Assembly: GCA_017961325.1 (NCBI GenBank)
Contig: JAGCXM010000015.1
Span: forward strand, 9,408-73,407
DNA length: 64,000 bases
DNA from: a bacterium
GTDB taxonomy: Bacteria; UBP6; UBA1177
Direction: 5' to 3'
Below the pieces are notes generated by a model. That model did no database searches. It was not told where the DNA came from and was given only the letters and a program-made list of their open reading frames with translations. Both the position numbers and the translations under genes were made by a program. The number at the start of each line of letters is the position of its first letter. The stretch's first letter is position 1. Below are positions 27,632 to 43,207 of this stretch, in pieces.

Positions 27632-30085
27632 TTAAAGAATCTTTTCGCTTTTCAGAAGACTCTCTTCATCGTATCCGGCAAGCTCTTTGCGGTAGCCGTT
27701 TTTGATTATGTGGAATTCTCCGGTGAAAGAGTCGAATTTTTTCATGACGCTTCCGAGTTCGGTCTGGTGTCTGATTGTCATTTCGAGAGTTTCATCATTA
27801 AAATCAAGCACTTCCAGGATTTCTTTTGCCGAATCGAAATCAGTTTTTTCAAAGAATTTCACGCGGTAGGTGCTTGTCGGAAGGGTTCTGAGGATCTTTT
27901 CGACTTTCTTTATCTTTTCGCGGTCGCATTTGGTGAAAGTGAGGAATTTTATTCCGGAATTTTCCAGAATTGAATTGAGTTTCGCCAGAGTTTCAGCCTC
28001 ATCGGTCTCTTCGGTGAGCCAGACCGTGCCGAATTCCTCGTCGACTTCGACTCCGACAGGTGCCGGAAACGCCAGATTGAAGCGCGGCATCGGGTGGAAA
28101 CCGTCGGAATAGAGGATCTGCAGGTCACTCAAAGTGAGCGCTTTGAAAAGGAACGAAACGAGATCCAGGTGCCCGATGCTTATCGAATTTCCGTGTTTCG
28201 AAAGAGAGAAGACATAAGGGAATGAGTTGTTTTTATTGTTCTTTTCGGGAATTTCAAAAGTCGCGTTCTCGTCAAGCGGCTCCCCCGTTCTGATCATCGG
28301 TTTGACCTCTTTGAAATCGCACGCGCCGCAGCCGTTGCACTTTCCGGTCTTCGCGCAGTCGGGAGTGACTTCGAAGTTGTATGCCTTTTCACGTTCGCTG
28401 AGGAGGAATTTCCTGTCGATCCTGAGGTCTATGTGCTCATAGGGAAGCGGTTTGTCCAGTGATTTCGGCAGATAAGTGCTTTCGGGGTCGATTCCCGCCG
28501 CCGCCATTCCCTGATCCCAGAGAACGGGGTCGAAACTGACGTCTTCGGTCTGGAGCCCTTTCATGTTTTTCGCAACGAATTCAATGACTTTGCCGTATTC
28601 GCGCCCGGCACGACTCAAATATCCTTCGACCGTGCTCACTTCCTGATCGTGCCATGCGAGTTTGATATTTTTTATGCCGCGCAGACTTTCGATGATTATC
28701 TTCTGCTTTGCCTTTATCTCCGCCGGACTCGACATTTTTTCCCACTGGAACGGAGTGAAGGGCTGCGGCACGAAAGTCGAGAAACTGACGCTTATCATCG
28801 CCTTTTTCCCGAATCTTTTTATATAGTTGCTCATTCTTTTGACGAGCTGCACCGTCTCGACGATGTCCCTTTCCTCTTCAAGCGGAAGCCCCAGCATGAA
28901 GTAGAGTTTGACCGCCTGCCAGCCGTTTGAAAATATCGTGTGGATCGCGTTGATGAGGTCTTCTTCGCTGTTGCCTTTGTTGATGACGCGGCGCAGTCTT
29001 TCGCTTCCCGATTCGGGAGCCAGCGTGAAGCCGACTTTTCTCCCTTTTCTGATGACCTGCGCGATCTTCGGAGTGATCGTTTCTGTCCTGAGACTCGGCA
29101 GAGAGACCGAGATCTTGCGACTGTAGCGGCTGTACGAACGGACCAAAATGTCTTCGATCTCGCTGTGGTCTGCCGCCGAAAGCGAGAGGAAACCCGCCTC
29201 GTCGTAACCCGAAGTCCTGACTACCCTGTCCAGAATTTCGCAGACATTTTCGGCACTTTTCTCTCTGTGCGGCCGGTAGAACATTCCCGCCATGCAGAAG
29301 CGGCAGCCTCTGGTGCAGCCTCGCATTATCTCGATCGTGAAGCGGTCGTGGATCGTCCTCATCGCAAATATCGGAGCGTCGAAAAGCGAGTCTGGATCGT
29401 AGTTGAGATCCGGAAGTATCGACCTTCTCGCGACCTGCCCCGAAAGAGAGCCGTCCTCGTTTATTTTGAGATCTTTACCGTTCTGAACCGACGGAATATA
29501 GACCGAAGGGATCTTCGCAAACGCCTCGAGACGCGCCTTTTTCCCTTTCACATTTTCTAAAATGTCCATGAATTCTTCAGCCGCCGGCTCGAACTCTCCG
29601 ATCGAAACAGCGTCGATGAAATCGGCCATCGGTTCCGGGTTGCACATGACCGGCCCGCCAGACCAGATTATCGGATAACTCTCTGAATTCATTCTGTCTT
29701 TCGAATGTATTGGAATCCCTGCGATCTCAAGGATCTTCAGAAAATCTGGGTACTGCAGCTGATACTGGAACGACACAGCGATAATGTCAAAATCGCGGTA
29801 GTTCACCCCGTGCATCATCGAAGTCAGACCGCCGCTTTTTGCAGCGATTTCAAATATATCCTTCTGCGGAGAGAAGCCGAAATCGACCAGAAATCCTCTC
29901 CTGTGGAAAAGCGAATAGAGGATCTTCACCCCGGTGTGGCTCTGTGCCATCTCGAAAAGATCAGGAAAAAGTATCAGTATTTTCGGCTTATTAGGGTCAG
30001 TTTTGACCTTAACAGTCTCGATAAACGGCGCGAAGTAGCGCCCCGGCTTTTCGATCCTGCGCAGAAAAGAAGTTACAAGTTTCAA
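27632..30085 (-). CDS. Radical SAM protein of the TIGR03960 family fused to a C-terminal DUF2344 domain
   Basis: CTRGCRFCMAG radical-SAM cysteine motif in the middle. B12-binding-like N-terminal region. C-terminal 220 aa resemble DUF2344 (GHLDLVSFLFKALTLS). Confidence 0.7.
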   Translation of the reverse strand: MKLVTSFLRRIEKPGRYFAPFIETVKVKTDPNKPKILILFPDLFEMAQSHTGVKILYSLFHRRGFLVDFGFSPQKDIFEIAAKSGGLTSMMHGVNYRDFDIIAVSFQYQLQYPDFLKILEIAGIPIHSKDRMNSESYPIIWSGGPVMCNPEPMADFIDAVSIGEFEPAAEEFMDILENVKGKKARLEAFAKIPSVYIPSVQNGKDLKINEDGSLSGQVARRSILPDLNYDPDSLFDAPIFAMRTIHDRFTIEIMRGCTRGCRFCMAGMFYRPHREKSAENVCEILDRVVRTSGYDEAGFLSLSAADHSEIEDILVRSYSRYSRKISVSLPSLRTETITPKIAQVIRKGRKVGFTLAPESGSERLRRVINKGNSEEDLINAIHTIFSNGWQAVKLYFMLGLPLEEERDIVETVQLVKRMSNYIKRFGKKAMISVSFSTFVPQPFTPFQWEKMSSPAEIKAKQKIIIESLRGIKNIKLAWHDQEVSTVEGYLSRAGREYGKVIEFVAKNMKGLQTEDVSFDPVLWDQGMAAAGIDPESTYLPKSLDKPLPYEHIDLRIDRKFLLSEREKAYNFEVTPDCAKTGKCNGCGACDFKEVKPMIRTGEPLDENATFEIPEKNNKNNSFPYVFSLSKHGNSISIGHLDLVSFLFKALTLSDLQILYSDGFHPMPRFNLAFPAPVGVEVDEEFGTVWLTEETDEAETLAKLNSILENSGIKFLTFTKCDREKIKKVEKILRTLPTSTYRVKFFEKTDFDSAKEILEVLDFNDETLEMTIRHQTELGSVMKKFDSFTGEFHIIKNGYRKELAGYDEESLLKSEKIL

Positions 30086-30223
30086 AATATTCTCCTAAAA
30101 CATGAATGTTTTCAGCAATCTACTTAATTTCTTCAATTAAAAGAACTCTTGTCAAAAGACGGCGATACTTTAAGGAAAATTGTGGAAAATGCAAGAGTTC
30201 AGGGGCGGACAGGCCGTATTCAG

Positions 30224-30287
30224 CTCAACGAATACGAACACTCATTTTGAGGTCAAAAATTTTGACCTCAAAAAAACACGTTATTCG
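30224..30287. repeat. Repeat family A, copy 1 (about 64 nt; contains the perfect palindrome TTGAGGTCAAAAATTTTGACCTCAA)
   Basis: Near-identical to 31995-32057. Internal 12-nt inverted arms. Directly followed by a 29-nt partial copy of repeat B (30289-30317). Confidence 0.85.
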
Positions 30288-30369
30288 CCGTTTAAAGCGG
30301 TAAATTTTGTGATTTTGCAATTTGAGGAAGTGTCAAGAAAAAGTTAACTTCGACTATCTTAGATTGTTT

Positions 30370-30690
30370 TTATCTGCCGCTATGACAAATGACATCGTAA
30401 CTACCATTTTGACTCCTGTCAGCTTGGGAGACATATACTCTACAATCCTCGCTCACAGAAACCGCAAGACCTTCAAGAGTTATAAAAGTAGCATAAGGAC
30501 ATTTCAGATTTCTGGAAGCAAGCGTTCTTGCATTTGCTTTCAGTTCGTCAGCAGTAGCCAGATACCGATTGATAGAACGGCAATAATCCTTTGCATCTTG
30601 AAATGACATGCGAGTTCCTGGAATCGGGGATGCCGCGGTAAGAATTGCAAAGCAGAGAATAAAGAAAGAAAGCAAAAAAAATTTTTTCAT
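30370..30690 (-). CDS. Small secreted Cys-containing protein, DUF1566/Lcl-like fragment (paralogue 1)
   Basis: Start reassigned to MKKFFLL (signal peptide) with a GGAG RBS. YCRSIN..LATADEL resembles the DUF1566 motif. Paralogous to 30743-31051. Confidence 0.55.
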   Translation of the reverse strand: MKKFFLLSFFILCFAILTAASPIPGTRMSFQDAKDYCRSINRYLATADELKANARTLASRNLKCPYATFITLEGLAVSVSEDCRVYVSQADRSQNGSYDVICHSGR

Positions 30691-30742
30691 GTCAAATCTC
30701 CGTAAAAAATTATCATCATCAAATAATACCTTTTGAGATCTT

Positions 30743-31051
30743 CTATCTTCCGATGCAGACAGCCTGATAACTAGAACCTTCTTTTCCTGTTCCAAAAGCA
30801 CTCACAACACAATTACTTCCGAAAGAAACGGTTTGATTGTTTTCGCCTATAAAAGTCTGTGGAGCACAATTAGTCATTCCAGCTGCTTTCATAAGCGATA
30901 CCATCTCGTAGGTATATGCCAACCGCATATTGATACTGCGGCAATAATTTACAGCCTGTTGATATGTAACAGCTCTGGGAACAGGTTTTACAGCTGCCGA
31001 AAGTGTTACAAAACTGAAAACCAAAACAAAAACCAAGAAAAATTTTTTCAT
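30743..31051 (-). CDS. Small secreted Cys-containing protein (paralogue 2; tandem duplicate)
   Basis: MKKFFLVFVL signal peptide. Shares YCRSIN and a C-terminal SY.V.C..GR with paralogue 1. Upstream 30 nt nearly identical to that of paralogue 1 (catgtcaaatctcc). Confidence 0.55.
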   Translation of the reverse strand: MKKFFLVFVLVFSFVTLSAAVKPVPRAVTYQQAVNYCRSINMRLAYTYEMVSLMKAAGMTNCAPQTFIGENNQTVSFGSNCVVSAFGTGKEGSSYQAVCIGR

Positions 31052-31096
31052 GTCAAATCTCCTTAAAATAAGTTGTTAAAAATTCACCTTTTCAGG

Positions 31097-31492
31097 CTAT
31101 CTTACAAAAAACACAAAATGTTCTAAGTCAACGCAGCTTGGACCTTCATCACCTTCAACGAAACCTACTACCCACCTGCAGTCAGGGCGGCAGTTTTCAT
31201 CTGAAGAAGACCAAAAAGTTTTGGAAAGATCCAAACCGATGCAAACTTCTCGAATTTGATACAGATATTTAAGTTCTTCTTTTGTCGGAAGCCGCCAGTC
31301 AGAAAATCCGCCTATCTTAGAATTTTTAGCACACACTTCGGCAGCCTCCCAAGACATTTTGCCGTCGATTTTCGTAATCATTTTGATTTTGCCGATAGCT
31401 TCATTCAGTTCAATGTAATCGCCATGATCTTCAAAAATGTTTTTCACTATAACCTCAATTTGCAAATGAACAAAAAACCGATTTTCGGACAC
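31097..31492 (-). CDS. DUF1566-domain protein (Lcl C-terminal-like), no obvious signal peptide
   Basis: WEAAEVCAKNSKIGGFSDWRLPTKEELKYLYQ is the canonical DUF1566 'WRLPT..EL' motif. Confidence 0.6.
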   Translation of the reverse strand: MSENRFFVHLQIEVIVKNIFEDHGDYIELNEAIGKIKMITKIDGKMSWEAAEVCAKNSKIGGFSDWRLPTKEELKYLYQIREVCIGLDLSKTFWSSSDENCRPDCRWVVGFVEGDEGPSCVDLEHFVFFVR

Positions 31493-31623
31493 CTATTTTT
31501 TTGTGTCCCAAACCTATGGTCAGCATTTTAATCTTAAATTTACTAACAGTCAAGAAAATAATTACTGGTGGTCAAAAATTATTTTCTGTATGTGATATAT
31601 TAAAAAAAGGAGGTGTTTTGAGT

Positions 31624-31956
31624 ATGGATGACAAAACACTTGGCAAACGGGTAAAAGCATTAAGGCGTAAAGCCGGAATAACGCAGCTTGACCTCGCATG
31701 TCGGGTAAATATCAGCGAAAGCTATATCGCGTTGATAGAAGCAGACAAACGAAAACCGGGAATGGATATAATCTCTACTTTGGCAAACGAATTTCATGTC
31801 TCCGTTGACTATCTTTTAAGCGGCAAAATATCAGAAGAAGACAATCTCATGCTCAAAGAATGGACATCTCTTATAAAGGAAAGACCTCAAAAAGATATCG
31901 AAAGCGCACTTAAAATCGTCCGTACTTTTTTTGAATGTGTGGACAGCAAAAAATAA
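31624..31956 (+). CDS. XRE-family helix-turn-helix transcriptional regulator
   Basis: LRRKAGITQLDLACRVNISESYIALIE HTH_3 motif. Start moved to the ATG preceded by AGGAGG (the ORF-track 5' extension lacks an RBS). Confidence 0.7.
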   Translation: MDDKTLGKRVKALRRKAGITQLDLACRVNISESYIALIEADKRKPGMDIISTLANEFHVSVDYLLSGKISEEDNLMLKEWTSLIKERPQKDIESALKIVRTFFECVDSKK

Positions 31957-31994
31957 TTTTCAGAAAGTTTCTCAGGCTAAATTTTATGTTCCGG

Positions 31995-32057
31995 CTCAAC
32001 AAATACCAATACTCATTTTGAGGTCAAAAATTTTGACCACAAAAAACACGTTATTCG
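31995..32057. repeat. Repeat family A, copy 2
   Basis: About 90% identical to 30224-30287 including the palindromic core. Confidence 0.85.
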
Positions 32058-32117
32058 GAAAGGCCTTCCTTTCACAAACTACAAAATCAAGCTGAAAATG
32101 CTTTGAACAGATTGCAG

Positions 32118-32157
32118 ATTTTATACATTTTCGGAATCCGATTCCGAATTTGTATAA
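32118..32157. repeat. Repeat family C, copy 1 (40 nt; contains the palindrome TTCGGAATCCGATTCCGAA)
   Basis: Direct repeat of 33395-33434. The pair flanks the AAA ATPase gene. Confidence 0.8.
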
Positions 32158-32169
32158 AAATTTTGTCTT

Positions 32170-33384
32170 TTAGATTGCGTCAATCGGAATCAAGCTGTTC
32201 ATTCCATCAATAGGCAAGGTTGAACCTGTCATGCAGAGGATACAGCCTTTGCCAGCTTCAAAATTATTTAAATACCTGATTACGCTGAAATTTTTCAACA
32301 CTTCCCTGCCGGGATTTGCTGATTTTTTGATTTCAATCGGGAAAATTTTTCCGTTTTGGACGATAAGCAGATCTATTTCCTTTGAATTGTTGTCGCGATA
32401 GTAGCAAAGACGACTTCTAATGTCTATTCCTTTATTTGCGTAACTTTTTATTATCTCTGAAACGACATAAGTTTCGAACATCGCACCGGACATTGCCGAA
32501 AGTTCAAGTGCCCTCGGGTTGTTCCAAAAACTCAGATAACATGCAAGCCCTGTGTCCATAAAGTAAAGTTTCGGCCGTTTGACAATTCTTTTGACAGTGT
32601 TTGCCGAAAAGGGTGAAAGGAGAACAACTATCCCCGATGAAACAAGAACGGAAAGCCATTTGTCAGCAGTTTTTGAATCGATTCCAATCTCTTTCGAAAT
32701 ATCCGAAAGGTTAAGTTCCTGAGCTGTTCTTGCAGCAGCACACGATATGAATTTCAGGAATTTTTCTTCATCCTTTATGTTTATGAGATCGCGGATATCG
32801 CGCTCCAGATAAGTCTGCATATATGAACCGAAGTAGTCTTCCGGCAAAATTTCCCTGTCTACGGTAAGTTTGGGCATCCCGCCTCTGTAAATTTGCCCGA
32901 AAACTTCCGAAATTGTTCTTTTCTGTTCAAAAAACGGCACGTCATCAGGCAGAAAAGCCTTGGATTCCCTCCCGATTATTTCCGAATAACTCAGCGAAAA
33001 TAAAGAAAAAACTGCGACTCTTCCTGCAAGAGACTCGCTCACGTTCTTCATTGCGTGGAACATCTGGGAACCTGTCAGAAAATACTGTCCTGAAGCATTA
33101 TTTTTATCAACATTTATCTTGATAAAGGGCAGAAGTTCCGGCGCATATTGGATTTCGTCGATTATCAAAGGTGTTTTATACTGCTGGAGAAACAGCTCAG
33201 GGTCGCTCTTTGCAAGCTGTTTTAAAGCGGGATAGTCCAAAGTCACATAGTTTATTCCGCTTCTTTTTTCTGCGAACTCTCTGAGCAGAGTGGTCTTTCC
33301 GGTTTGTCTCGCTCCACAGACCATGATTACCGGGAAATGCTTTGAAAGTTCTTCAATTCTTGAAATTGCTGTCCGTTCGATCAT
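32170..33384 (-). CDS. AAA-family ATPase with C-terminal DUF4143 domain
   Basis: Walker A GARQTGKTTL and Walker B LLIIDEIQ. Typical AAA_14/DUF4143 architecture. Start reassigned to MIERTAIS, preceded by a GGAGGAA RBS. Confidence 0.7.
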   Translation of the reverse strand: MIERTAISRIEELSKHFPVIMVCGARQTGKTTLLREFAEKRSGINYVTLDYPALKQLAKSDPELFLQQYKTPLIIDEIQYAPELLPFIKINVDKNNASGQYFLTGSQMFHAMKNVSESLAGRVAVFSLFSLSYSEIIGRESKAFLPDDVPFFEQKRTISEVFGQIYRGGMPKLTVDREILPEDYFGSYMQTYLERDIRDLINIKDEEKFLKFISCAAARTAQELNLSDISKEIGIDSKTADKWLSVLVSSGIVVLLSPFSANTVKRIVKRPKLYFMDTGLACYLSFWNNPRALELSAMSGAMFETYVVSEIIKSYANKGIDIRSRLCYYRDNNSKEIDLLIVQNGKIFPIEIKKSANPGREVLKNFSVIRYLNNFEAGKGCILCMTGSTLPIDGMNSLIPIDAI

Positions 33385-33394
33385 GCTTCCTCCG

Positions 33395-33434
33395 ATTTTA
33401 TACATTTTCGGAATCCAATTCCGAATTTTTATAA
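33395..33434. repeat. Repeat family C, copy 2
   Basis: ATTTTATACATTTTCGGAATCC(A/G)ATTCCGAATTT(T/G)TATAA, matching 32118-32157. Confidence 0.8.
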
Positions 33435-33546: not shown

Positions 33547-33630
33547 TTACCACGGAACCGAGATAAGTCCGGTAAAACCCATGAATGCAAGTGAGAAAAG
33601 ACCTGCTGTGACGAGCGCAGTCGCCTTGCC
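33547..33630 (-). pseudogene. Orphan duplicated 3' terminus of rnfA (encodes ...[27 protein letters not shown])
   Basis: About 80% nt identity to 38572-38660. Translation matches the last 27 aa of RnfA. No upstream ORF continues it. Confidence 0.8.
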
Positions 33631-33728
33631 TCAAAACCATTCCCCGGAAATCCCGTTGCAGGCTTTTCAATAGTTTAAGATCGGATTTTCGACAGATCAT
33701 GCCGTTTAAAGCGGTAAATTTTGTGATT
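33629..33728. repeat. Repeat family B, copy 1 (about 100 nt)
   Basis: About 90% identical to 34599-34699. A partial copy lies at 30289-30317. Confidence 0.85.
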
Positions 33729-33743
33729 TTTGAAAAAAAAGGA

Positions 33744-34037
33744 TCAGCTGTTTTGCGGAAGAAATTCTATTTTGAGTTTCATCCCCATCCCAATAGCCAG
33801 ACGCTGTAAAGTTCTAAGAGACGGATTTGCATTTCCTTTTTCAATTTTGCTGATGTCACCCTGCGCGATTCCGGTGCGCTCTGACAGTTCTTTTTGTGTA
33901 AGCCCTGACTGTTTGCGTGCATCAATGATTGCCTGAATCACGGCGTGTTCCGGCTGAAGCAGCTCGTATTCAGCCTTAAACTCGGGATTTTTCAGCTGTT
34001 CTTTGAGAAAATCATTAAACTTTTCGCCCATTTTCAT
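33744..34037 (-). CDS. higA: HigA-like XRE-family antitoxin
   Basis: HTH (LTQKELSERTGIAQGDISKIEKG). Overlaps and follows a HigB/Gp49-family toxin gene. Confidence 0.7.
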   Translation of the reverse strand: MKMGEKFNDFLKEQLKNPEFKAEYELLQPEHAVIQAIIDARKQSGLTQKELSERTGIAQGDISKIEKGNANPSLRTLQRLAIGMGMKLKIEFLPQNS

Positions 34038-34386
34038 CTCCGTTTCTACGCAAGTAATCGGCTCGGTATCTTTTTGCTTTTTCTATTTCTGCGACAGGAG
34101 TTTTCTGCGTTTTCTTGATAAAACCGTGAGTCAGCACGATCCGCCTGTCAACATAAAAGAAATAGAAAACACGCATTATATTTGTTTCGGCACGGGCTCT
34201 CAATTCAAAAATCCCGTCAGACAGATATTTCGAATAAGGCTCCCGTAAGTCGCAGCCGTTATCCTGCAGTATCGAAATCATGTCCGCCATTTTAGCCCTC
34301 ATTTTTACATCAAGTGACAAAAGAAATTCCTTTGCCGGCTGGCTGCCGTTCTCTTTTTCATAAAACTCGACTTCAAAACTTGTCAC
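34015..34386 (-). CDS. higB: HigB/RelE-superfamily toxin (phage Gp49-like, PF05973-type)
   Basis: 123 aa. Sequence pattern ...FELRARAETNIMRVFYFFYVDRRIVLTHGFIKKTQKTP of the Gp49/HigB family. Toxin-first order with an overlapping HTH antitoxin. Confidence 0.65.
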   Translation of the reverse strand: MTSFEVEFYEKENGSQPAKEFLLSLDVKMRAKMADMISILQDNGCDLREPYSKYLSDGIFELRARAETNIMRVFYFFYVDRRIVLTHGFIKKTQKTPVAEIEKAKRYRADYLRRNGDENGRKV

Positions 34387-34598
34387 AGAACCACTCCAAA
34401 AACTGTTTTATAGGATTTATCCTATTTTGTCAACATTTTTTACTTCAAAATCTCAATTTAATCTCAACAAAGAACAATTAAGATGCATTATTTAAATAAT
34501 CAGAATTTAAAATCAAGTTTTCGATTGTAGCAAGTAGAAAAGTTTAACTTTGCGGCAAACATGAATTTTCGTGAAGTGCAAAAAAGATGCTTTTATCG

Positions 34599-34699
34599 CC
34601 TCAAAACCATTCCCCGGAAATCCCGTTGCAAGCTTTTCCGAGAGTTTAAGATCGGATTTTCGACAAATCATGCCGCTTAAAGCGGTAAGTTTTGTGATT
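34599..34699. repeat. Repeat family B, copy 2
   Basis: CCTCAAAACCATTCCCCGGAAATCCCGTTGCA...CATGCCGCTTAAAGCGGTAAGTTTTGTGATT, matching 33629-33728. Confidence 0.85.
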
Positions 34700-34733
34700 C
34701 TGTGGAAATTTGACGGGTTAAACGACTTTTTGC

Positions 34734-35870
34734 TTACTTTTCTTTAGGCGGATTATCTTTCAAAAATAAAAGACCTTTTGCATCAAGCCTGTCGTCATTG
34801 TCAAACGGAATCCCTGCTTCTTTCTTTTTACGCAGAAGTTCTTGCGTGTAATACGCAAGTACAGATATTTGAATTCTGAAAAGCTCGCACATCGTTTTTT
34901 CACGTGTTGCAATATTGCCTGTATCACGGTAGTTGAAACCGTAACAAGTCGGGCAGATATTCAAAAGAGAACAATCAGCACAGAAAGGATCTGTATTGAC
35001 TTCTTGAGAAGAAAAATCCATCTTTTCTTGTAATTCAGCAGCCTTTTGAGTTCCCAAAACCATTGGAGTGAAAAGATGGCATGGGTAAGTTTTTCCGTCT
35101 ACATCGTAAGTTATCATATGGGTTCCGGTGCCGCACCATTTTTGCTTGGGATTACGCTCAATTGTCAAAAGTCCTATTCTCCTTGCAAACATAGGTATTG
35201 TTTCAACATTTGGATGCTCCAAATAATAATCTGCCAAAATCATTAACTGCTTACGAAATTCTTTTTTATCTTCTTCAGACCAAACTTGACCGTATCCACA
35301 GTTTGCTGAAAAATTCTTAGCCCCCTTTTCTATCAAATAAATGACTCCTGAAGCTAAATTTTTCAATGAGTCAGGAGATATAGTCATCTTAGCTCCTTGT
35401 TCAGGATAAGTTTTAAGGAAAAAATCCAAATCGACTTTACTAGCACAATTTGTTCTGTTCATATCCTGCGATTCCTCAGTTCCATCGTAGCTTATACCAA
35501 CAACAAAACGCTCTTTATGCTTAACTAGCCATTGTTTGATTTCATCAGTAATAAGTGTTCCGTTAGTAGTCGTGAAAAAGATATACGGAACCTCCCATTT
35601 CTGCGACCAAGTCCACTCCATAATCTCTTTCATCAAATCGAACTTTACAAATGGTTCACCGCCCATGAAATCGAACTCAATTTCATCAAAATCCGGCGAG
35701 TTTTTAACAAACTCAAACTCTTTTGTGATAATTTCTTTAGCCAATTCAAGAAGCATATAATGTTCATCTTTATATTTTTCGTAACAATAAACACAATTCA
35801 AATTACAGGAATGAGTTATAACCAAAGTACAACTCCTATGCCTTGACGAACTATTTTTATTTGAACTCAT
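34734..35870 (-). CDS. Radical SAM enzyme with C-terminal SPASM domain (RiPP peptide-modifying maturase candidate)
   Basis: CNLNCVYC radical-SAM motif near the N-terminus. C-terminal Cys clusters WCGTG...C...CADCSLLNICPTCYGFNY typical of the SPASM/twitch auxiliary Fe-S domain. Confidence 0.75.
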   Translation of the reverse strand: MSSNKNSSSRHRSCTLVITHSCNLNCVYCYEKYKDEHYMLLELAKEIITKEFEFVKNSPDFDEIEFDFMGGEPFVKFDLMKEIMEWTWSQKWEVPYIFFTTTNGTLITDEIKQWLVKHKERFVVGISYDGTEESQDMNRTNCASKVDLDFFLKTYPEQGAKMTISPDSLKNLASGVIYLIEKGAKNFSANCGYGQVWSEEDKKEFRKQLMILADYYLEHPNVETIPMFARRIGLLTIERNPKQKWCGTGTHMITYDVDGKTYPCHLFTPMVLGTQKAAELQEKMDFSSQEVNTDPFCADCSLLNICPTCYGFNYRDTGNIATREKTMCELFRIQISVLAYYTQELLRKKKEAGIPFDNDDRLDAKGLLFLKDNPPKEK

Positions 35871-35943
35871 TTACTAACCTCTGAATTTTTACAAAAAGAG
35901 AGAGCCAAAGGTCTCTCAGAAAAAAGTGATTAAACAAACAAAA

Positions 35944-36138
35944 CTAACTCGGATGATTTAAATCCCAAGTATTCGAAAACCTGCAAGAATCTAAACATTC
36001 TCCTTGGCAAGTTCCTGCACAACCACCATAACAATCATCGCAAGCATAGGATTGCTGGTTCCCAACAGATTCATAAGATACCGAACCAGATGAAACAACT
36101 GAGTTCAGCAACTCGACATCGTAATTTACATTACTCAT
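35944..36138 (-). CDS. 64-aa precursor peptide with a six-Cys core (CDDCYGGCAGTCQGECLDSC), ranthipeptide/SCIFF-like
   Basis: Start set at the ATG preceded by a GGAGGG RBS. Leader-like N-terminal half, then a Cx2Cx3Cx3Cx3Cx3C core. Lies 73 nt upstream of the rSAM/SPASM gene on the same strand, with a hairpin in between. Confidence 0.6.
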   Translation of the reverse strand: MSNVNYDVELLNSVVSSGSVSYESVGNQQSYACDDCYGGCAGTCQGECLDSCRFSNTWDLNHPS

Positions 36139-36313
36139 CTTTCCCTCCATGAAAAAAAATTAATAAAACAAAAAAACGGTCTTTTGACCAAGATTACAAA
36201 ACAACAGTATTTCAAAAATTTTCAATTGTCAAATTTATCAATGCTTTTGTATTTTGCAAATACTTTGATATTGCTTTAGTTTACTTTGGTTGAACGAGCT
36301 AAGAGGTGAAATC

Positions 36314-36589
36314 ATGTTCGGAGACAGAGTAAAGCAGGTGCGTGAAGCTCATAATTACAGCCAAGTGCAGCTTGCGGCCATACTTCATGTCTCAAGACAG
36401 ACAGTCTCAAACTGGGAAAACAACAACATAATGCCGTCAATCGAAATGCTCATCAAACTTGCCGACCTGTTCGGTGTTTCAACTGATTTTCTGCTGGAGC
36501 GCGACAACCGCCGCTCTTTGGATATCACCGGTCTGACAGAGATCCAGTGCGCTCACCTTAATCTTATAATTCAGGATATTTTGCAGTAA
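36314..36589 (+). CDS. XRE-family HTH regulator, divergent from the RiPP pair
   Basis: QVQLAAILHVSRQTVSNWENNN HTH motif. Start at the ATG with an AGAGGTGA RBS. Confidence 0.7.
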   Translation: MFGDRVKQVREAHNYSQVQLAAILHVSRQTVSNWENNNIMPSIEMLIKLADLFGVSTDFLLERDNRRSLDITGLTEIQCAHLNLIIQDILQ

Positions 36590-36818
36590 ATTCAGTGACT
36601 TAATCCCGTGACATTCTAATAAGAATTGGGAGGCTGTCGCAAATTGCAACAAACTGCAAGCATACAGAGGCTGAGACTTTGACAAAATCGCTTGATATTA
36701 ACATTAGATCTTTATCAAGAAATAATTTAAAATACAACAATGAGGCATGAAATAAAACTTGATTTTTGGAGAAATTATTGTTTTGTATTTCGCGAAACTT
36801 TTCTTTGGAGTTTGAAAT

Positions 36819-37808
36819 ATGGAAAACGAAGTGATTTTATACACAGATGAAAACGGAAAAACAAATGTTTCTGTGCGTTTTGCCGATGAAGATGTATGGG
36901 TAACACAAGCTCAGCTTGCCGAGATTTACAACACGACACAGCAGAATATCAGCCTGCACATTGATAATATTTACAGAGATGATGAACTGCCGGAAACGGC
37001 AACTCACAAGGATTTCTTGTTAGTTCAAAAAGAAGGCACTCGCAATGTAAAGCGTAATATTTCACATTACAATCTCGATATCATTATTGCTCTCGGCTAT
37101 CGAGTTCAGTCGGATGTTGCAGTGCGCTTCCGCCGTTGGGCGACTCAAAGACTTCACGAGTATATTCAGAAAGGCTTTGTTATGGATGACGAGCGGCTCA
37201 AGCAGGGGCGGAACCGTTATTTTAGGGAACTTCTGCAGAGAATACGCGATATCCGTTCAAGCGAGCGCAATTTTTATCAGCAGGTTACTGATATTTATGC
37301 TACTGCGACAGATTACGATCCGCGCTCGAAAACAACGCTTCATTTTTTCGCAACAGTGCAGAATAAACTTCATTATGCTGTACATGAACATACAGCGGCG
37401 GAATTGATTTATGAGCGGGTTGACAGTGAAAGGCCTTTTGTCGGCATGACAAATTTTAAGGGGGATTATGTTACAAAAGATGATGTGAAAATAGCGAAAA
37501 ACTACCTTTCTGAAGTCGAATTGCAGCGTCTGAATCTTCTCGTTTCGGAATTCTTGGATTTTGCGGAATTTCAGGCACTTGAAGAAAAACCCATGAAAAT
37601 GCAGGATTGGATCAAAGCTCTTGACAATCAGATAATAGCACATCAGCGCAAAATTCTTGAGGGAAAAGGCTCTGTCAGCCACGATCAGGCAATGAGAAAA
37701 GCTGAAAAGGAATACGAACTTTTCCGTAAGAAACAGCTGGCAAATCTTAAAAGTGACTTCGATTTATTTTTGAAAGACGTAAAAAGTCTAGAGAAATCCG
37801 AGAAATAA
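36819..37808 (+). CDS. RhuM-family virulence-associated protein
   Basis: N-terminus ILYTDENGKTNVSVRFADEDVWVTQAQLAEIY and overall about 330 aa match the RhuM family (PF13310). Confidence 0.65.
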   Translation: MENEVILYTDENGKTNVSVRFADEDVWVTQAQLAEIYNTTQQNISLHIDNIYRDDELPETATHKDFLLVQKEGTRNVKRNISHYNLDIIIALGYRVQSDVAVRFRRWATQRLHEYIQKGFVMDDERLKQGRNRYFRELLQRIRDIRSSERNFYQQVTDIYATATDYDPRSKTTLHFFATVQNKLHYAVHEHTAAELIYERVDSERPFVGMTNFKGDYVTKDDVKIAKNYLSEVELQRLNLLVSEFLDFAEFQALEEKPMKMQDWIKALDNQIIAHQRKILEGKGSVSHDQAMRKAEKEYELFRKKQLANLKSDFDLFLKDVKSLEKSEK

Positions 37809-37952
37809 CCTGCCTCAACCAGTTATCAAGTCGGCCAACCCATGAATGCAGGTGCGTGAGGCACATAATTACAGTCAGGTGCGACTTGCAACTCGGCTCC
37901 ATGTTTCCAAACAGGCAGTCTCGAACTGGGAAAACAACAACATTATGCCGTC
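37803..37952. pseudogene. Junction remnant: a degenerate third copy of the rnfA 3' terminus (37803-37848) joined to a truncated duplicate of the XRE gene from 36334-36441 (37849-37952)
   Basis: ...AAGTCGGCCAACCCATGAATGCA matches the rnfA-end repeat. It is followed immediately by an approximately 85%-identical copy of the HTH gene, starting internally at ...VREAHNYSQV. Confidence 0.7.
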
Positions 37953-37967
37953 AATCGAAGTCGGAAG

Positions 37968-38495
37968 TCAGATCAAAAGCATCGAACATCCGCCGGATTT
38001 GCCTTCATCCCCAGCGCCGTCGGAAGTGTTGTCGTCAGCTGCATCGACCTCCGGATAATCGGAGTCGTCGGTTTCCCAGCCTTCGACAGGTTCGGTTCCG
38101 CACTCTTCCGCCAAGACCGATCCGCATCCGTTTTCGCTGAAAGTGCCGGTTCCGGTCTTTAGATCTCCGACTCCGTAACACCTGCAGGCATAGTTGCCGC
38201 CGTATGCTACTGTACACTTGCCGGCCTCATTCCGACAACGGATCCGCGTATTTTTGCAGAGCTTTTCGATCTTCGCCATGCAAATTTCATTGCTAAGCGA
38301 AGTCGTTTCAGGCTGGACATTTTCATCGGAAACATATCCTTCGCCGTCCCGGCATTCACACTCCGAACGGATCAATCCGTCAGTCAGCGTAAGAGAGCAC
38401 TTTCCGAGTTCCGATTCACACGAAATACTTTTCTCTTCCGCAAAAAGAGCCGTTGCAACAGCAAAGACGGCAGCTAAAACAACTATCTTTTTCAT
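37968..38495 (-). CDS. Secreted Cys-rich protein with an acidic C-terminal tail; function unknown
   Basis: Signal peptide MKKIVVLAAVFAVATALFA. About 14 Cys in CxC/CxxC-like spacing. D/E-rich C-terminus. Good start context. Confidence 0.55.
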   Translation of the reverse strand: MKKIVVLAAVFAVATALFAEEKSISCESELGKCSLTLTDGLIRSECECRDGEGYVSDENVQPETTSLSNEICMAKIEKLCKNTRIRCRNEAGKCTVAYGGNYACRCYGVGDLKTGTGTFSENGCGSVLAEECGTEPVEGWETDDSDYPEVDAADDNTSDGAGDEGKSGGCSMLLI

Positions 38496-38571
38496 ATAAC
38501 CTCCTGACTCAATTACAGCTTTTGTTTCTGTGGGTTAAAGCCTGAAGATATTTTTAGACTTGTTGCTGATT

Positions 38572-39159
38572 CTACCACGGAACTGCGATGAGTCCGGTGA
38601 AGCCCATGAATGCGAGTGAAAGAAGGCCGGCGGTGACAAGTGCGATCGGTGCGCCTTTCATTGCTTCGGGGATTTCGTAAAGCTCAAGGCGTTCCCTGAT
38701 CCCGGCAAAAATTACGAGTGCCAGGAAGAAGCCGAGAGCGGTCGCGATGGTGTAAACAACGCTCTGAAGAAGGTCGTAGTTTTTCTGAGTTACGAGGATC
38801 GCGACACCAAGAACAGCGCAGTTGGTCGTGATGAGAGGAAGGAATACGCCGAGAGCCTGATAAAGCGGCTGCGAAACTTTTTTCAGAATGATTTCAACCA
38901 TCTGCACAAGTGCAGCGATGACAAGGATGTATGCGACCGTCTGCATGAAACCGATGTTGAGCGGGATCAGGACGAGGTTGTAAAGCAGCCACGTGACTGT
39001 CGTAGCCAGGGTCATGACGAAAAGGACTGCCGCGCCCATGCCGACCGAAGTCGAAACTTTGTTCGAAACGCCGAGGAAGGGGCAGATTCCCAGAAACTGC
39101 GCAAAAACGATGTTGTTGACAAGTATCGCGCTTATGAAAACAAGAATATATCCAGTCAT
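38572..39159 (-). CDS. rnfA: Rnf electron-transport complex subunit A
   Basis: 195 aa, 6 TM helices, [11 protein letters not shown] motif. Confidence 0.85.
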
Positions 39160-39168
39160 TTTCCCCTC

Positions 39169-39765
39169 CTATGCCGCTTTTCTGTTTTTGATGTGGTTGA
39201 CGAACGCAATCAGGAAGCCGAGCGCGATGAAAGCTCCGGGCGGCATGATGAAAAGAAGGATCTTGTCAATGTTTTCGGGGATGAACTGGAATCCGAAAAC
39301 AGAGCCGTTACCCAAAATTTCTCTTACCGAACCTAAGATCGTGAGCGACATCGTGAAGCCGAGACCGATGCCTAAGCCGTCAGCTGCAGAAAGAAGGACA
39401 CCGTTTTTCGAAGCGAAAGCCTCGGCGCGTCCCAAAATGATGCAGTTTACAACGATGAGCGGGATAAAAAGTCCCAGAGTCTCGTAAAGATCGGGAAGAT
39501 ATGCCTGCATGACGAGGTCAACGACCGTTACGAAACTTGCGATGACTACGATGAAACCGGGGATCCTGACTTTATCGGGGATCACGTTTTTCAGCAGTGA
39601 AATTACGATGTTAGAGCAAATGAGAACCACTGTTGCCGCAAGTCCCATGCTGAGCCCGTTGACCGAACTTGTCGTCGTTCCGAGAGTCGGGCACATACCC
39701 AAAAGGAGAACAAAAGTGGGGTTTTCCTTTATGAAACCTTTTGTAAATTCTTTCCAAGCACTCAT
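39169..39765 (-). CDS. rnfE: Rnf complex subunit E
   Basis: 198 aa, LLLGMCPTLGTTT motif. Confidence 0.85.
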   Translation of the reverse strand: MSAWKEFTKGFIKENPTFVLLLGMCPTLGTTTSSVNGLSMGLAATVVLICSNIVISLLKNVIPDKVRIPGFIVVIASFVTVVDLVMQAYLPDLYETLGLFIPLIVVNCIILGRAEAFASKNGVLLSAADGLGIGLGFTMSLTILGSVREILGNGSVFGFQFIPENIDKILLFIMPPGAFIALGFLIAFVNHIKNRKAA

Positions 39766-39774
39766 TTCCGCCTC

Positions 39775-40335
39775 CTATTTCTTTCCGCTCTTGTATGCGG
39801 CGACCGCAGTGTTTACGGCGTCCAGGAACGCTCTCGAGGAGATCGTGGCTGCGGTTATCGCATCAACGTCGCCTCCGTCTTTTTTGACCGAAAGCTTAAA
39901 GTTTTCAGGGTCTTTGCCGTTCACCTGATCCTTGAATTTCGGGTTCGTCATGTTGCTGCCGAGCCCCGGAGTCTCTTTGATCGAAAGGACTGCCGTGTTG
40001 TGGATCCTGCCTTCTGCGTCAAAGCCGACAAGAATCTGGACATCGCCGCCGAAACCCTTTTTCGAGACTGCTTCGACTGCCGTTCCGACAAGCTCTTCGC
40101 CTTTGTATGCCGGAGTGAGCGTGCAGCCGTTCGATTCGTATTTTTCACCCAGCTTTTCAAACGCCGGAAGAACAGCTTCGAGAGCCTTTTTCGACTTTTC
40201 GAGCTGGACTTTTTCAGCCGCAGGTTTTGTTTTCGAGTAGGTGAAGCCTATTGCCAGCGCGCTTACGAGCGATATCGCCGCAAGGACGATGAGCATATTT
40301 TTGAATGAACTTTCGAGTTTTTTCTTATCCGCCAT
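39775..40335 (-). CDS. rnfG: Rnf complex subunit G (FMN-binding)
   Basis: FMN_bind domain with DAITAATISSRA (flavinylated Thr/Ser motif). Start uncertain: ATG at 40335 gives an 11-nt overlap with rnfD, ATG at 40380 gives a 56-nt overlap. Confidence 0.75.
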   Translation of the reverse strand: MADKKKLESSFKNMLIVLAAISLVSALAIGFTYSKTKPAAEKVQLEKSKKALEAVLPAFEKLGEKYESNGCTLTPAYKGEELVGTAVEAVSKKGFGGDVQILVGFDAEGRIHNTAVLSIKETPGLGSNMTNPKFKDQVNGKDPENFKLSVKKDGGDVDAITAATISSRAFLDAVNTAVAAYKSGKK

Positions 40336-41302
40336 AGTTGACCTCGCTGCCGAATCTTTTCGGCTTGATGTATTTGTCAATAAGTGGAACGAACGCGTTC
40401 ATGATGAGGATCGAGAACATGCAGCCTTCGGGATATGCGCCCCAGAGCCTGATGCACGAGCAGATGATGCCTGCTCCTATCGCAAAAACGATCTGTCCTT
40501 TCGGATTCATCGGGCTCGTTACCATGTCGGTGAGCATGAAGAAAGCTCCGAGCATTACGCCGCCGCCCAGAATGTGGTAAAGCGGATTGACGAACTGCTC
40601 CGGATCAACGAGCCAGGCGATTCCGGTGAAAACAAATATCGTGGCAAGGAAAAAGAAGGGGATATGCCACGAAATTATCTTTTTGTAGATAAGGAAGAGC
40701 CCGCCCAAAAGTATCGCGAGCGCGCTTGTTTCACCAAGAGATCCGCCGACAGTACCGATGAAAAGATCCCAGTAAGCAGGAAGCTGGCTGAAAGCGTGAA
40801 GTTTGATGTTGCCGAGCGGAGTTGCTGCCGTCATCGCATCAACGTTCCAGACAAAACGTGTGATCCCGGGCTGCGGCCAGGTCGTCATCGAAACGGGGAA
40901 GCTGATGAGGAGGAAAGCTCTGCCTACAAGTGCCGGATTGAACGGGTTCTTGCCGAGACCGCCGAAAGCCATTTTCGCGATGCCGATAGCGACCAAAGCA
41001 CCGATGAAAAGCTGCCAGAGCGGGATCGAACTCGGCATGTTGAAAGCTAAAAGAAGTCCCGTGACTGCGGCTGAACCGTCGCAGACCGTGACTTTTGTCT
41101 TAAGCAGAAACTTCTGGATCAGGTATTCGATACCGACACAGAAAACAAGCGAAGCCGCGACGACGACGAGAGCTCTTATTCCGAAATTGTAAAGAGCCGA
41201 AATAAAGGAAGGGATAAGTGCGGCGCAGACGAGCCACATGATCTTGTTCGTCGTAAAATGACCCTTTTCATGCGGCGAGAGGGAAACTTTCATATTGTTC
41301 AT
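40325..41302 (-). CDS. rnfD: Rnf complex subunit D
   Basis: 325 aa polytopic NqrB/RnfD family protein. Confidence 0.85.
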   Translation of the reverse strand: MNNMKVSLSPHEKGHFTTNKIMWLVCAALIPSFISALYNFGIRALVVVAASLVFCVGIEYLIQKFLLKTKVTVCDGSAAVTGLLLAFNMPSSIPLWQLFIGALVAIGIAKMAFGGLGKNPFNPALVGRAFLLISFPVSMTTWPQPGITRFVWNVDAMTAATPLGNIKLHAFSQLPAYWDLFIGTVGGSLGETSALAILLGGLFLIYKKIISWHIPFFFLATIFVFTGIAWLVDPEQFVNPLYHILGGGVMLGAFFMLTDMVTSPMNPKGQIVFAIGAGIICSCIRLWGAYPEGCMFSILIMNAFVPLIDKYIKPKRFGSEVNYGG

Positions 41303-42654
41303 TTTGCCTCCTGTTTTTTAGCAGCTCTTTCTCTTCTGATCCTTCCGACATTCGCCTTTGCGAGCCTGATGTAGTCAAGGAGCGGACGTGCGCTCGGGCA
41401 GGTGTAGCTGCAGCAGCCGCACTCGATGCAGTCGGTCACGTTGAGAACGTCGAGATCGTCCCATCTTCCTTTCTCCGCAAGTTTTTCGTAGAGGAAAGGC
41501 TCAAGTCCCATCGGACATGCGTCAACGCACTTCGCACAGCGGATGCAGTTCTGGACTTCCCTGCGTTTCGCCTCGCTTTCGTCAAGCAGAAGAACGCCGC
41601 TCGTCCCTTTCGTGACCGGAAATTCTGCTGAAACGGCGGCTTTTCCCATCATCGGGCCGCCCGAAATTATCTTGCCTGTTCCTTCCGGGATCCCGCCCGA
41701 TTTTTCGATGAGGACGCTTGCCGGGATACCGATCCTGACAAGGTAGTTCGCCGGTCTCGCGAGTTTTTTGCCGGTCACCGTGACAACTCTTTCAAGCAGC
41801 GGTTTGTGTTTCTGGACTGCTTCGTAAATTGCGAGAGCACTTCCGACGTTGTCGACTACGCAGCCGACGTCAAGCGGGAGTTTGCCTGACGGAACTTCGC
41901 GGTTGCGGATCGCTTTGATGAGCTGTTTTTCAGCGCCCTGCGGATATTTGAGCATGAGCGGCTGGACGACCGTTCCGGGAAAATCTTTGACAGCCTTTTC
42001 CATTTTTTCGATCGCATCGGGCTTGTTCGCCTCAATCCCGATGAAAGCCGTGTCGATCCTGAGGGCCTTTTTCATGATCTCGACGCCGACTAAGATCTCT
42101 TCAGTCCTTTCGAGCATGATCCTGTGGTCGGCCGTGAGGTAAGGCTCGCACTCAACTGCGTTTATGATGAGCGTGTCGGCTTTTTTGCCTTCGGGAATCG
42201 TGTATTTGACGTGAGTCGGGAAACATGCGCCGCCCATTCCGACGATGCCCATTTCCTTCATAGTTGCGACGATTTCTTCCGGAGTCGCCTTGATTTCGCG
42301 GATGAGTTCGGGAGTTCTGATGATGTTCTCTTCCCATTCATCGGCTTCATCGACATCGATTATCACCGCTTTTGAAGCGAATCCGCCCGGATCCTTGACG
42401 GTATCGACCGCGAAAACGGTTCCGTTTACCGAAGAGTGGATGTTGACCGAAACAAAACCGCCCGCCTGACCTATCAGCGTGCCGACTTTGACTTTGTCGC
42501 CTTTCTGGACGACCGGAGCGGCAGGCGCGCCGATGTGCTGCGAAAGAAGGATCGTTACCCTTTTCGGAAGTTCGACCGCTTCTATCGGTGTTCCCACACT
42601 TATCTTGTTTGCAGGGGGATGAACACCACCCTTTTTAAAAGTCTTGAAATTCAA
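41299..42654 (-). CDS. rnfC: Rnf complex subunit C (NADH-binding, 2x[4Fe-4S])
   Basis: CIRCAKCVDACP and CIECGCCSYTCP ferredoxin motifs. RnfC N-terminal and SLBB domains. Confidence 0.85.
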   Translation of the reverse strand: MNFKTFKKGGVHPPANKISVGTPIEAVELPKRVTILLSQHIGAPAAPVVQKGDKVKVGTLIGQAGGFVSVNIHSSVNGTVFAVDTVKDPGGFASKAVIIDVDEADEWEENIIRTPELIREIKATPEEIVATMKEMGIVGMGGACFPTHVKYTIPEGKKADTLIINAVECEPYLTADHRIMLERTEEILVGVEIMKKALRIDTAFIGIEANKPDAIEKMEKAVKDFPGTVVQPLMLKYPQGAEKQLIKAIRNREVPSGKLPLDVGCVVDNVGSALAIYEAVQKHKPLLERVVTVTGKKLARPANYLVRIGIPASVLIEKSGGIPEGTGKIISGGPMMGKAAVSAEFPVTKGTSGVLLLDESEAKRREVQNCIRCAKCVDACPMGLEPFLYEKLAEKGRWDDLDVLNVTDCIECGCCSYTCPSARPLLDYIRLAKANVGRIRRERAAKKQEAK

Positions 42655-43034: not shown

Positions 43035-43055
43035 TTCGCTCTCACCTTTTTTGGT

Positions 43056-43201: not shown

Positions 43202-43207
43202 GGCGCG

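Follow-up and report, generated by a model that had tools for sequence, protein, structure and literature searches.

Displaced rnfA 3' ends at a polymorphic junction that gathers toxin-antitoxin and candidate defence genes

The rnfA gene, the last of the rnfCDGEA operon, is followed in a bacterium of the GTDB lineage UBP6 (UBA1177) by a variable region in which fragments of the rnfA 3' end recur among genes unrelated to it. The DNA analysed here, referred to as the window, is a stretch of 64,000 nt of contig JAGCXM010000015.1 (GenBank assembly GCA_017961325.1, positions 9,408 to 73,407). In it, rnfA lies at 38572..39159 on the minus strand (Pfam Rnf-Nqr, 1.6e-61; NCBIfam TIGR01943, 1.4e-82), behind rnfC (41299-42654), rnfD, rnfG and rnfE on the same strand. 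A radical SAM/DUF2344 gene encoding 817 aa (27632..30085, minus strand; Pfam) forms the conserved far flank, and the variable region between the two flanks extends over 8.2 kb, from 38571 down to ~30320, with a GC content of 0.35-0.42 as against 0.50-0.54 in the flanks. The initial annotation of this DNA had delimited an island by its outermost repeats (33.5-38.7 kb), too narrowly, since the region that varies is 30.3-38.57 kb. The rest of the window is ordinary chromosome, with dnaG, rpoD, guaB, prs and a polysaccharide cluster. Comparison with close relatives identifies the site as a junction between two conserved flanking genes whose content varies from genome to genome, and the displaced rnfA ends within it bear on the way in which that content is exchanged.

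The rnfA 3' terminus itself (copy 1, 38572-38660, minus strand, repeat family D3) reappears about 5 kb away as an orphan, copy 2 (33547..33632, minus strand), which begins -86/-88 nt from the stop codon. Positions 33548-33623 match 38573-38648 with 80% identity over 76 ungapped nt on one strand (blastn-short E ~1e-7), so that the proposal that the last ~85 nt of rnfA recur in the same orientation and still in coding form is confirmed. The orphan translates to an RnfA-like C-terminus and an in-frame stop precedes it. The two copies differ at 17 positions per 78 nt, and among the 14 differing codons 10 are synonymous and 4 non-synonymous; this mostly synonymous pattern indicates that the orphan diverged as a working gene end rather than as a decaying local duplicate. 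Judged by its codons, copy 2 is most readily read as a displaced terminus that was once functional. The three copies share an 11-nt core, CCCATGAATGC, as the initial annotation had stated, and the 64 kb contain this core at three positions and no others (33578, 37839 and 38603, all on the plus strand; 0.02 occurrences expected). The third occurrence marks a much shorter copy (copy 3, 37833..37850, minus strand), which starts at the core GCATTCATGGG and is alignable over ~18 nt alone, as CAC[C/T]TGCATTCATGGGTT, with 17/18 positions matching; with a local score of 31 against a background mean of 12.5 (sd 3.2) it is the top site of the window outside the two long copies. The degenerate copy earlier placed at 37803-37848 is thereby reduced to this remnant, the claimed interval beyond the 18 nt, down to 37803, having no significant similarity to the rnfA terminus.

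Copy 3 is fused to XRE' (37845..37959, plus strand), a remnant of an XRE gene that is truncated at both ends and marks the distal end of the insert next to rnfA. XRE' is 83% identical to positions 36331-36445 in the XRE gene of the window (family D1) and 92% identical to the intact XRE allele that follows a secreted-protein gene in two relatives (L001 and L003), so that it derives from a different allele and not from the XRE gene of the window itself. The junction, compared with both parent sequences, reads ...CACGCACCTGC joined to ATTCATGGG..., with TGC / CTCAC microhomology to the rnfA end; copy 3 is a truncated orphan joined to XRE' through CAC/TGC microhomology. Of the earlier claim that the repeat abuts a truncated duplicate of the XRE gene after a later microhomology deletion, the junction thus stands and the origin of the duplicate does not.

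The array between the flanks is made up of cassettes and short linkers. The rnfA-proximal cassette, S (37968..38495, minus strand), encodes a Cys-rich protein of 175 aa with a signal peptide and no family match in Pfam, NCBIfam or PADLOC; it is the first cassette behind rnfA in many relatives, the protein standing directly after rnfA in L001 and L005 (91-94% identical) and the gene likewise first in L098, L099, L100 and L103. Beyond XRE' lie a RhuM-family gene (36819..37808, plus strand; Pfam Virulence_RhuM, 1e-107; PADLOC defence candidate PDC-S05, 7e-141), an XRE/HTH_3 regulator (36290..36589, plus strand; Pfam HTH_3, 2.4e-19) and a peptide-maturation cassette (34734..36150, minus strand). 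The latter comprises a precursor of 68 aa (35944-36150), Cys-rich and with C-terminal C-x3-C repeats (CDDCYGGCAGTCQGECLDSC), and a radical SAM maturase (34734-35870) whose top NCBIfam match, TIGR04115 (CXXX-repeat target maturase; 6.5e-44), scores 150.9 bits, below the 350-bit cutoff, with a PapB-type model second. The precursor matches TIGR04114 and TIGR04117 weakly, and the pair may be a divergent member of the CXXX-repeat or PapB-type families. Next come a type II toxin-antitoxin cassette (33744..34386, minus strand) with a Gp49/RelE-like toxin (34015-34386; Pfam Gp49, 3.9e-26) and an HTH antitoxin (33744-34037; HTH_3, 1.7e-13), then orphan copy 2, and then a DUF4143/AAA_14 ATPase cassette (32117..33434, minus strand; gene 32170-33384; Pfam; PADLOC candidate PDC-S01, 1.4e-104). 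A distal block (30320..32057) holds, by Pfam, an XRE gene (31501-31956, plus strand), an Lcl_C/DUF1566 gene (31097-31492, minus strand) and two paralogous small secreted proteins of 102 aa and 106-143 aa (30370-31051, minus strand). The paralogues share 76-nt repeated 5' regions (78% identical, family D4), and diverged versions of them stand beside Lcl_C genes in several arrays.

Three kinds of linker, not listed in the initial annotation, recur between these units. R1, of ~100 nt (families D2 and D5), is present as copy a (33625..33733), joined directly to orphan copy 2, and as copy b (34596..34701), upstream of the toxin-antitoxin cassette in the orientation of rnfA, and a 30-nt part of it, R1part, is found at 30287-30316. 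The unit of R1 and orphan is conserved in L005, L100, L103 and L090. R2, a terminator-like hairpin, lies at 30223-30287, with a second copy, R2', at 31994-32057 in the distal block. R3 is a 41-nt near-perfect palindrome, TTTTATACATTTTCGGAATCCGATTCCGAATTTGTATAAAA (repeats D10 and I1), whose copies at 32117-32157 and 33394-33434 bracket the ATPase gene, one just before its ribosome-binding site and the other just past its stop codon, and which may act as operators, terminators or recombination linkers. R1part, R2 and the promoter-like region before the radical SAM gene together form a distal scar (30126..30316), which is kept in an almost empty site and missing from truly empty ones, as described below.

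Related sites were collected by scanning species-representative genomes for RnfA, by scanning metagenomes with a degenerate pattern of the rnfA terminus and by looking up exact RnfA proteins, which gave about 45 loci (designated L) with about 35 distinct arrays, from rumen, gut and digester metagenomes; the comparison sequences are metagenome assemblies throughout. Within the clade of the window (RnfA 98-99% identical) the flanks are always rnfA and the radical SAM gene (813-818 aa), the latter syntenic in L001-L006, L084, L086 and L091-L105. The gap between them measures 43 nt in L096 and about 10-135 nt in L086 and L084; elsewhere it spans 0.5 to ~8 kb. Island-lacking relatives, to which the initial annotation had looked for comparison, thus exist as empty sites (L096, L086 and L084) and as the scar-only site L004, where ~280 nt hold R1part, R2 and the promoter-like region; the refuting case named in the initial annotation, relatives with the same fragments at a constant size, clearly does not apply, for they range in gap length from 43 nt to ~8 kb. 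The sole insert in the otherwise empty site of L084 is a tiny cassette for a hydrophobic, Cys-rich peptide of 32 aa (MESCCGCSIIIMGLILLGILGIVALIVFLIFF; L084:9346-9481). The same peptide cassette is found in L103 (8740-8837). A reading of the repeats as chance similarity or as conserved elements that regulate rnfA, which the short length of copy 3 favours and nothing else, is refuted by the match statistics, by the coding frame and synonymous pattern, and by presence/absence polymorphism with empty sites, and its probability is practically negligible.

The cargo of the arrays is shuffled among them. Toxin-antitoxin genes include PIN/antitoxin, RelB/ParE, nucleotidyltransferase/HepT, AbiE-like, ToxIN and Gp49/HTH pairs, and the other cargo comprises DUF4143 ATPases, DUF1016/YhcG, DUF3990/DUF3791 and Abi_2-like genes, radical SAM/SPASM peptide clusters, Lcl_C genes and small secreted proteins. 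Cassettes that are 96-99% identical occur in genomes whose flanks are 82-90% identical. Positions 31972-30279 of the window, for example, are 99% identical to L091, for which identity is 87% in rnfA and 82% in the radical SAM gene; the toxin-antitoxin block (34708-33706) is 98% identical in L001, and a unit consisting of the ATPase and an orphan is 96% identical between L097 and L001. In an exact-protein search, the Gp49 toxin had matches in rnfA arrays and at no other locus. Architectures recur across independent samples, that of the window in L081, L082 and L121, that of L001 in L119 and L122-L125, and that of L005 in L100. A type III toxin-antitoxin cassette is present at L005:8519-9361, L100:8480-9322, L103:8961-9130 and L090:1948-2100, with ToxN (PF13958 in L100) preceded by short tandem repeats resembling ToxI RNA; in L103 the ToxI-like repeats are present and ToxN is apparently missing, which may make it an orphan antitoxin array. 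The more distant P0011 and P0013 lineages (L106-L117) have the order RseC-RnfB-RnfCDGEA, and in the window clade rnfCDGEA stands without a neighbouring rnfB (38572-42654). Since RseC and RnfB precede rnfC in the relatives that have them, the island did not displace rnfB.

Orphan rnfA termini of independent origin number at least 12 and are spread over three lineages. Beyond the window they occur in L001, L005/L100 (two), L090, L089, L094, L097, L101/L102 (two) and L103 (two), and their 5' ends are scattered: in the window clade they lie at -108, -88/-86, -68, -62, -45, -39 and -27 nt from the stop codon, and elsewhere at -41 and -26 (L007) and at -44 (P0013 lineage). In L007, which belongs to a different genus (RnfA 82% identical), perfect repeats of 41 and 26 nt bracket a single-gene nucleotidyltransferase cassette of 466 nt and an RCC1-repeat protein; in the P0013 lineage (RnfA 79% identical), a 43/44-nt repeat 2.3 kb downstream brackets an AbiEii cassette. 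Among 73 more distant genomes, labelled mostly Bacteroidales or Lentimicrobium, there was no convincing orphan terminus downstream of rnfA. The scatter extends to orphans that stand beside intact upstream cassettes, where the stop codon of the L094 Lcl_C gene abuts an orphan starting at -86, a complete ATPase gene one at -68 and a terminator hairpin one at -62, and single-gene cassettes can be as small as 466-590 nt (L007 nucleotidyltransferase, L094 Lcl_C). The PIN cassette follows either intact rnfA or orphans of differing length (L095 and L006 versus L094, L089 and L101), and the ToxIN cassette of L103, L090 and L005 does likewise. The occurrence of the same cassette behind differing ends implies that DNA came in at several different positions within the final ~110 nt of rnfA, each time with a replacement end. 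One such step separates L094 from L095, which differ by an Lcl_C cassette and an 86-nt duplication. The R1-type orphans of L005, L100 and L103 are 98% identical to that of the window and are followed by the sequence that comes after intact rnfA in L004, which makes the orphan the older, displaced end. On the other side of the inserts, cassette-specific sequence begins 0 to about +30 nt past the stop codon, and two distal junctions interrupt genes at places where microhomology amounts to no more than 3-5 nt, namely that at XRE' in the window and that of a 193-nt XRE fragment beside a 27-nt orphan in L005/L100. Motifs shared just upstream of the orphans (AATTAAT, TAGTTCC, ATTTTTATC) are short AT-rich coincidences without significance. 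In an RnfA homologue of 246 aa from another lineage, on a 3159-nt ENA contig (P0006), the last ~55 residues are present as an in-frame, diverged tandem duplication (joint ...GFSGVV joined to YAFSTALGF...) without cargo, which is either real or an assembly artefact.

The repeats were first read as footprints of repeated insertion at the rnfA 3' end, each event bringing a replacement terminus, and this part of the reading is upheld; the orphan sits where the old terminus would be expected. The further qualification "site-specific" is not borne out, given 5' ends scattered from -26 to -108, cassette starts at 0 to ~+30 and no integrase-bearing occupant in the ~35 arrays. Under serial site-specific integration, integrase-less cassettes, similar to satellites or to cis-mobilisable elements (CIMEs), would carry an attP that mimics the rnfA terminus, would be integrated by a recombinase acting in trans from the genome or a helper, and would pile up in tandem, shorter orphans representing later deletions. 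Direct repeats of a gene 3' end that bracket cargo, with homology reaching the stop codon, are the classic pattern; the repeats are perfect over 41 and 26 nt in L007 and span 43/44 nt in the P0013 lineage, three orphans start at the common core, the newest cassette adjoins rnfA, and some cassettes move with the adjacent terminus, as does the ATPase unit of L097 and L001. Moreover, the same gene end has been duplicated independently in three lineages, and repeats of 26-44 nt are short for RecA. In streptococci, integrase-less elements are known to accumulate one behind another at the 3' ends of genes (PMC5704250).

Against this proposal stand the searches for a recombinase and for its site. No recombinase is encoded between the window repeats according to Pfam and NCBIfam, as the initial annotation had noted, and there is no recombinase or transposase among the window open reading frames of at least 120 aa tested. 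Of the ~35 arrays, from three RnfA lineages, those that had called genes or were scanned for open reading frames encode neither an integrase nor a transposase, and the called genes of arrays L081-L117 gave no match to Phage_integrase, Resolvase, Recombinase or transposase models. An integrase-bearing occupant of the rnfA end was found neither in the ~35 arrays and the 64-kb window nor among viral contigs, whole genomes being outside this search. The 2.9 million viral contigs gave 0 matches to the window-type terminus, to the L007/P0013-type terminus or to R1part, and thus no attP resembling the rnfA terminus. Orphans beside intact upstream cassettes start variously (-108, -86, -68 and -62), which leaves no common attP arm, and the shared 26-40 nt of the terminus have no dyad-symmetric core that could be seen by eye. 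Synonymous-codon identity across five lineages revealed no extra conservation at synonymous sites of the rnfA terminus, and no relevant literature on rnfA as an attachment site was found. Whole-gene mosaicism of rnfA, described below, would also be unexpected. We therefore consider serial site-specific integration possible but doubtful. A further, tentative idea is that the rnfA terminus is the docking site of an undescribed, dedicated cassette-capture system, integron-like but with its site within the segment of a housekeeping gene that encodes the last helix. On this account either a host enzyme or a recombinase gene at another place in the genome would supply the recombinase activity, and the system would stock the site with toxin-antitoxin and anti-phage cassettes in no fewer than three lineages of uncultured bacteria from gut and digester.

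Two other kinds of element would leave some of the same features. The arrays might be decayed prophages or integrative conjugative elements that formerly used their own integrase at an attB in rnfA, in keeping with their low GC content (0.35-0.42 versus 0.50-0.54 in the flanks) and with cargo types common on mobile elements (toxin-antitoxin, RhuM, XRE). Yet there is no phage, conjugation or integrase gene in any array, single-gene cassettes are as small as 466-590 nt, and cassettes 96-99% identical are actively shared by diverged genomes without mobility genes; searched against plasmid and phage collections, the island gave matches confined to single genes, at 65-72% identity. Such decay is very unlikely. 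More improbable still is an integron-like array, that is, a cluster of attC sites without an integron integrase (CALIN), despite the small, often promoterless single-gene cassettes lying in one orientation downstream of an operon, their richness in toxin-antitoxin genes and the presence of ~100-nt repeats (R1) between cassettes. A regular-expression scan of 30.0-38.7 kb, made without a covariance model, detected no complementary R''/R' (RYYYAAC...GTTRRRY) pair, R1 and both terminus copies fold as single strands no better than shuffled sequences (z -1.1 to +2.0), and no intI is present among the window proteins tested. Even taken together, a decayed integrative element, an integron and chance deserve little credence. 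The rnfA terminus and R1part bear no resemblance, by eye and without a formal scan, to the dif consensus or to 11-6-11 dyad symmetry. Xer/dif, Tn7-like, casposon and IS200/IS605 mechanisms were considered as well, and no matching gene, hairpin or site was seen. A transposon or insertion sequence was rejected for want of a transposase, the repeats being direct target copies of 26-108 nt.

A different line of evidence comes from the operon upstream. In an alignment of 16 loci the rnf operon falls into two deep clades that are 14-15% apart in rnfC and 18-21% in rnfD/G, and this split collapses in the last 600 nt, in rnfA: the distance drops from 18.4% to 3.0% between L100 and L098, from 17.5% to 3.3% between L099 and L096, and from 20.0% to 4.5% between L005 and L095. 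L101 and L095 are a further example of divergence that goes from 17-20% in rnfD/G to 3-4.5% in rnfA. L005 and L103, conversely, are almost identical (0-1 mismatch per 100 nt) up to a point ~900 nt ahead of the rnfA stop codon and differ by 3-12 per 100 nt thereafter. The tract boundaries fall within rnfE/rnfA, and for some pairs the recombination tracts extend over the radical SAM gene. Tracts that end beside the variable region argue for exchange mediated by the flanks and are not predicted by site-specific integration. On these alignments rnfA is a probable recombination mosaic between deep clades, pointing to homologous recombination anchored in rnfA/rnfE. We accordingly favour, with a probability of about 0.55, the reading that the junction between rnfA and the radical SAM gene is a hotspot of horizontal transfer at which exchange proceeds mainly by the general recombination of the host, with no integrase encoded by the elements.

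The molecular route we infer could begin with transformation or some other entry of DNA, either as a linear molecule with one anchor or as a circle with a single crossover. The DNA, derived from a related genome, would bring an rnfA end together with a different downstream cassette, and would be anchored on the left by pairing through the well-conserved rnfE/rnfA sequence of the recipient. On the right it might recombine with a shared stretch, such as the radical SAM gene, R1part, R2, the promoter-like region or XRE genes, or it might be joined illegitimately; alternatively, a circularised fragment with a short piece of the rnfA end might enter by a single crossover of the Campbell type. Wherever the join or crossover fell within the last ~110 nt of the recipient rnfA, the donor terminus would complete the gene and the old terminus would be pushed downstream, a process that might be called terminus displacement. 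Repetition would build up an array with the newest cassette adjoining rnfA, and later microhomology deletions would trim orphans and neighbouring genes, as at the junction of XRE' and core at 37850. Long or identical repeats would be lost by recombination, which could be the reason that the surviving orphans are all either short (at most ~110 nt) or diverged. A precedent exists in Escherichia coli, in which circular molecules with a partial homologous fragment, entering by a single crossover, duplicated 109-950 bp of the target; such duplications were the commonest outcome in an assay of homology-facilitated illegitimate recombination, above true illegitimate events (PMC3240628).

Several observations weigh against recombination by the host as the main route. 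The same gene end is duplicated independently in three lineages that have different downstream neighbours, and several orphans begin within a few nt of one core (copy 3 of the window, L089 and repeat 3 of L007); both the recurrent gene end and the recurrent core would be simpler under a targeted mechanism. The repeats of 26-44 nt in L007 and the P0013 lineage would be short substrates for recombination of the RecA type. No displaced 5' fragment of the radical SAM gene was found among the arrays, which implies an asymmetric process. Strain-switching chimeras within the conserved rnfA of metagenome assemblies could mimic some of the breakpoints, although the architectures of the arrays are themselves found again in independent samples. 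Finally, natural competence is unproven: the only hint of DNA uptake, judged from a family match, is a ComEC-like gene in L094. This candidate competence gene (PF03772; L094:14623-15930) immediately follows the radical SAM gene in one clade.

Features of the rnfA arrays can be recognised in several known systems. The prophages e14 and phage 21 integrate at the 3' end of a protein gene, icd of E. coli, and supply a substitute end; like the rnfA site, they involve a duplicated, mostly synonymous 3' end of a housekeeping gene whose original end is orphaned, and they possess their own integrase and a single fixed att. Integrative elements with their own recombinase share with the arrays the direct target repeats at the borders, whereas an internal recombinase and a fixed crossover or att extent were not seen at rnfA. 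Integrons and CALINs likewise add small, often promoterless cassettes, enriched in toxin-antitoxin genes, beside a fixed platform, but the rnfA arrays have neither attC hairpins nor IntI, and what bounds them is a copied gene end, not a structured site. CIMEs of the ICESt1/ICESt3 family at fda, and elements at tRNA-Lys, rpsI and other genes, are integrase-less, are bounded by repeats of a gene 3' end and accumulate in tandem (PMC5704250). They have attL and attR of fixed extent and integrase-bearing relatives at the same site, neither of which was found at rnfA, where integrase genes are absent and the repeats of the gene end are present but unequal in extent and may not be functional att sites.

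Closer parallels are offered by two systems that operate without an integrase. In the "C-terminal displacement" described at rhs and vgrG, paired homologous and illegitimate recombination produces arrays of orphaned 3' ends (PMC8125069). The arrays at rhs, cdiA and vgrG resemble those at rnfA in that orphaned 3' ends stand behind an intact gene, each retaining a longer or shorter part of the conserved upstream sequence, and in that new ends arrive beside the gene and push the old ones downstream with no integrase needed (PMC8125069; PMC3150448). They differ in that rnfA encodes a housekeeping membrane subunit whose termini all specify the same last helix, with no diversification of the protein, and in that its cargo (toxin-antitoxin, defence candidates, peptide-maturation genes and secreted proteins) is unrelated to the gene, unlike the toxin/immunity ends of rhs, cdiA and vgrG. 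The minimal mobile elements of Neisseria are variable regions between conserved flanking genes that are swapped by homologous recombination (PMC3787668). The rnfA site shares with them a content that varies between two conserved flanks, the lack of mobility genes and recombination in the flanks, seen here in metagenome assemblies; minimal mobile elements are not described as leaving duplicates of a flanking gene, unlike the rnfA site with its 12 or more displaced termini recording one-sided events. The rnfA arrays can accordingly be regarded as a variant of displacement arrays and minimal mobile elements, both already known.

Elsewhere in the window, Rfam and tRNA scans returned nothing within the array and detected, at 42959-43280, tRNA-Lys(UUU) and tRNA-Glu(UUC) followed by a cobalamin riboswitch match upstream of rnfC that is barely over the cutoff (32.7 bits). 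The riboswitch match lies at the start of an open reading frame of 811 aa (43200-45635) without a Pfam match. A protein of 1160 aa (48777-52259, minus strand), encoded some 6 kb upstream of the rnf operon and also present in L081, has an N-terminal SIR2_2 domain and PADLOC matches to ThsA and LmuA-type SIR2 models, and may be a stand-alone defence gene.

Hotspots that gather defence and toxin-antitoxin genes often have no recognisable mobility gene, and the entry of DNA into them is mostly inferred rather than seen. At rnfA, the displaced ends and their junctions are dated footprints of insertion that stand beside empty sites, which opens the mechanism to testing. Should homologous recombination suffice when one end is illegitimate or of short homology, displaced termini would be expected at the ends of other conserved operons of these genomes; should rnfA alone show them, a targeted recombinase must exist. 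Gene-end fragments of this kind should not be annotated as proof of an island that carried an integrase. The main value of the rnfA arrays lies in the natural record that they provide of the way in which toxin-antitoxin and candidate defence genes come to fill hotspots that lack an integrase.

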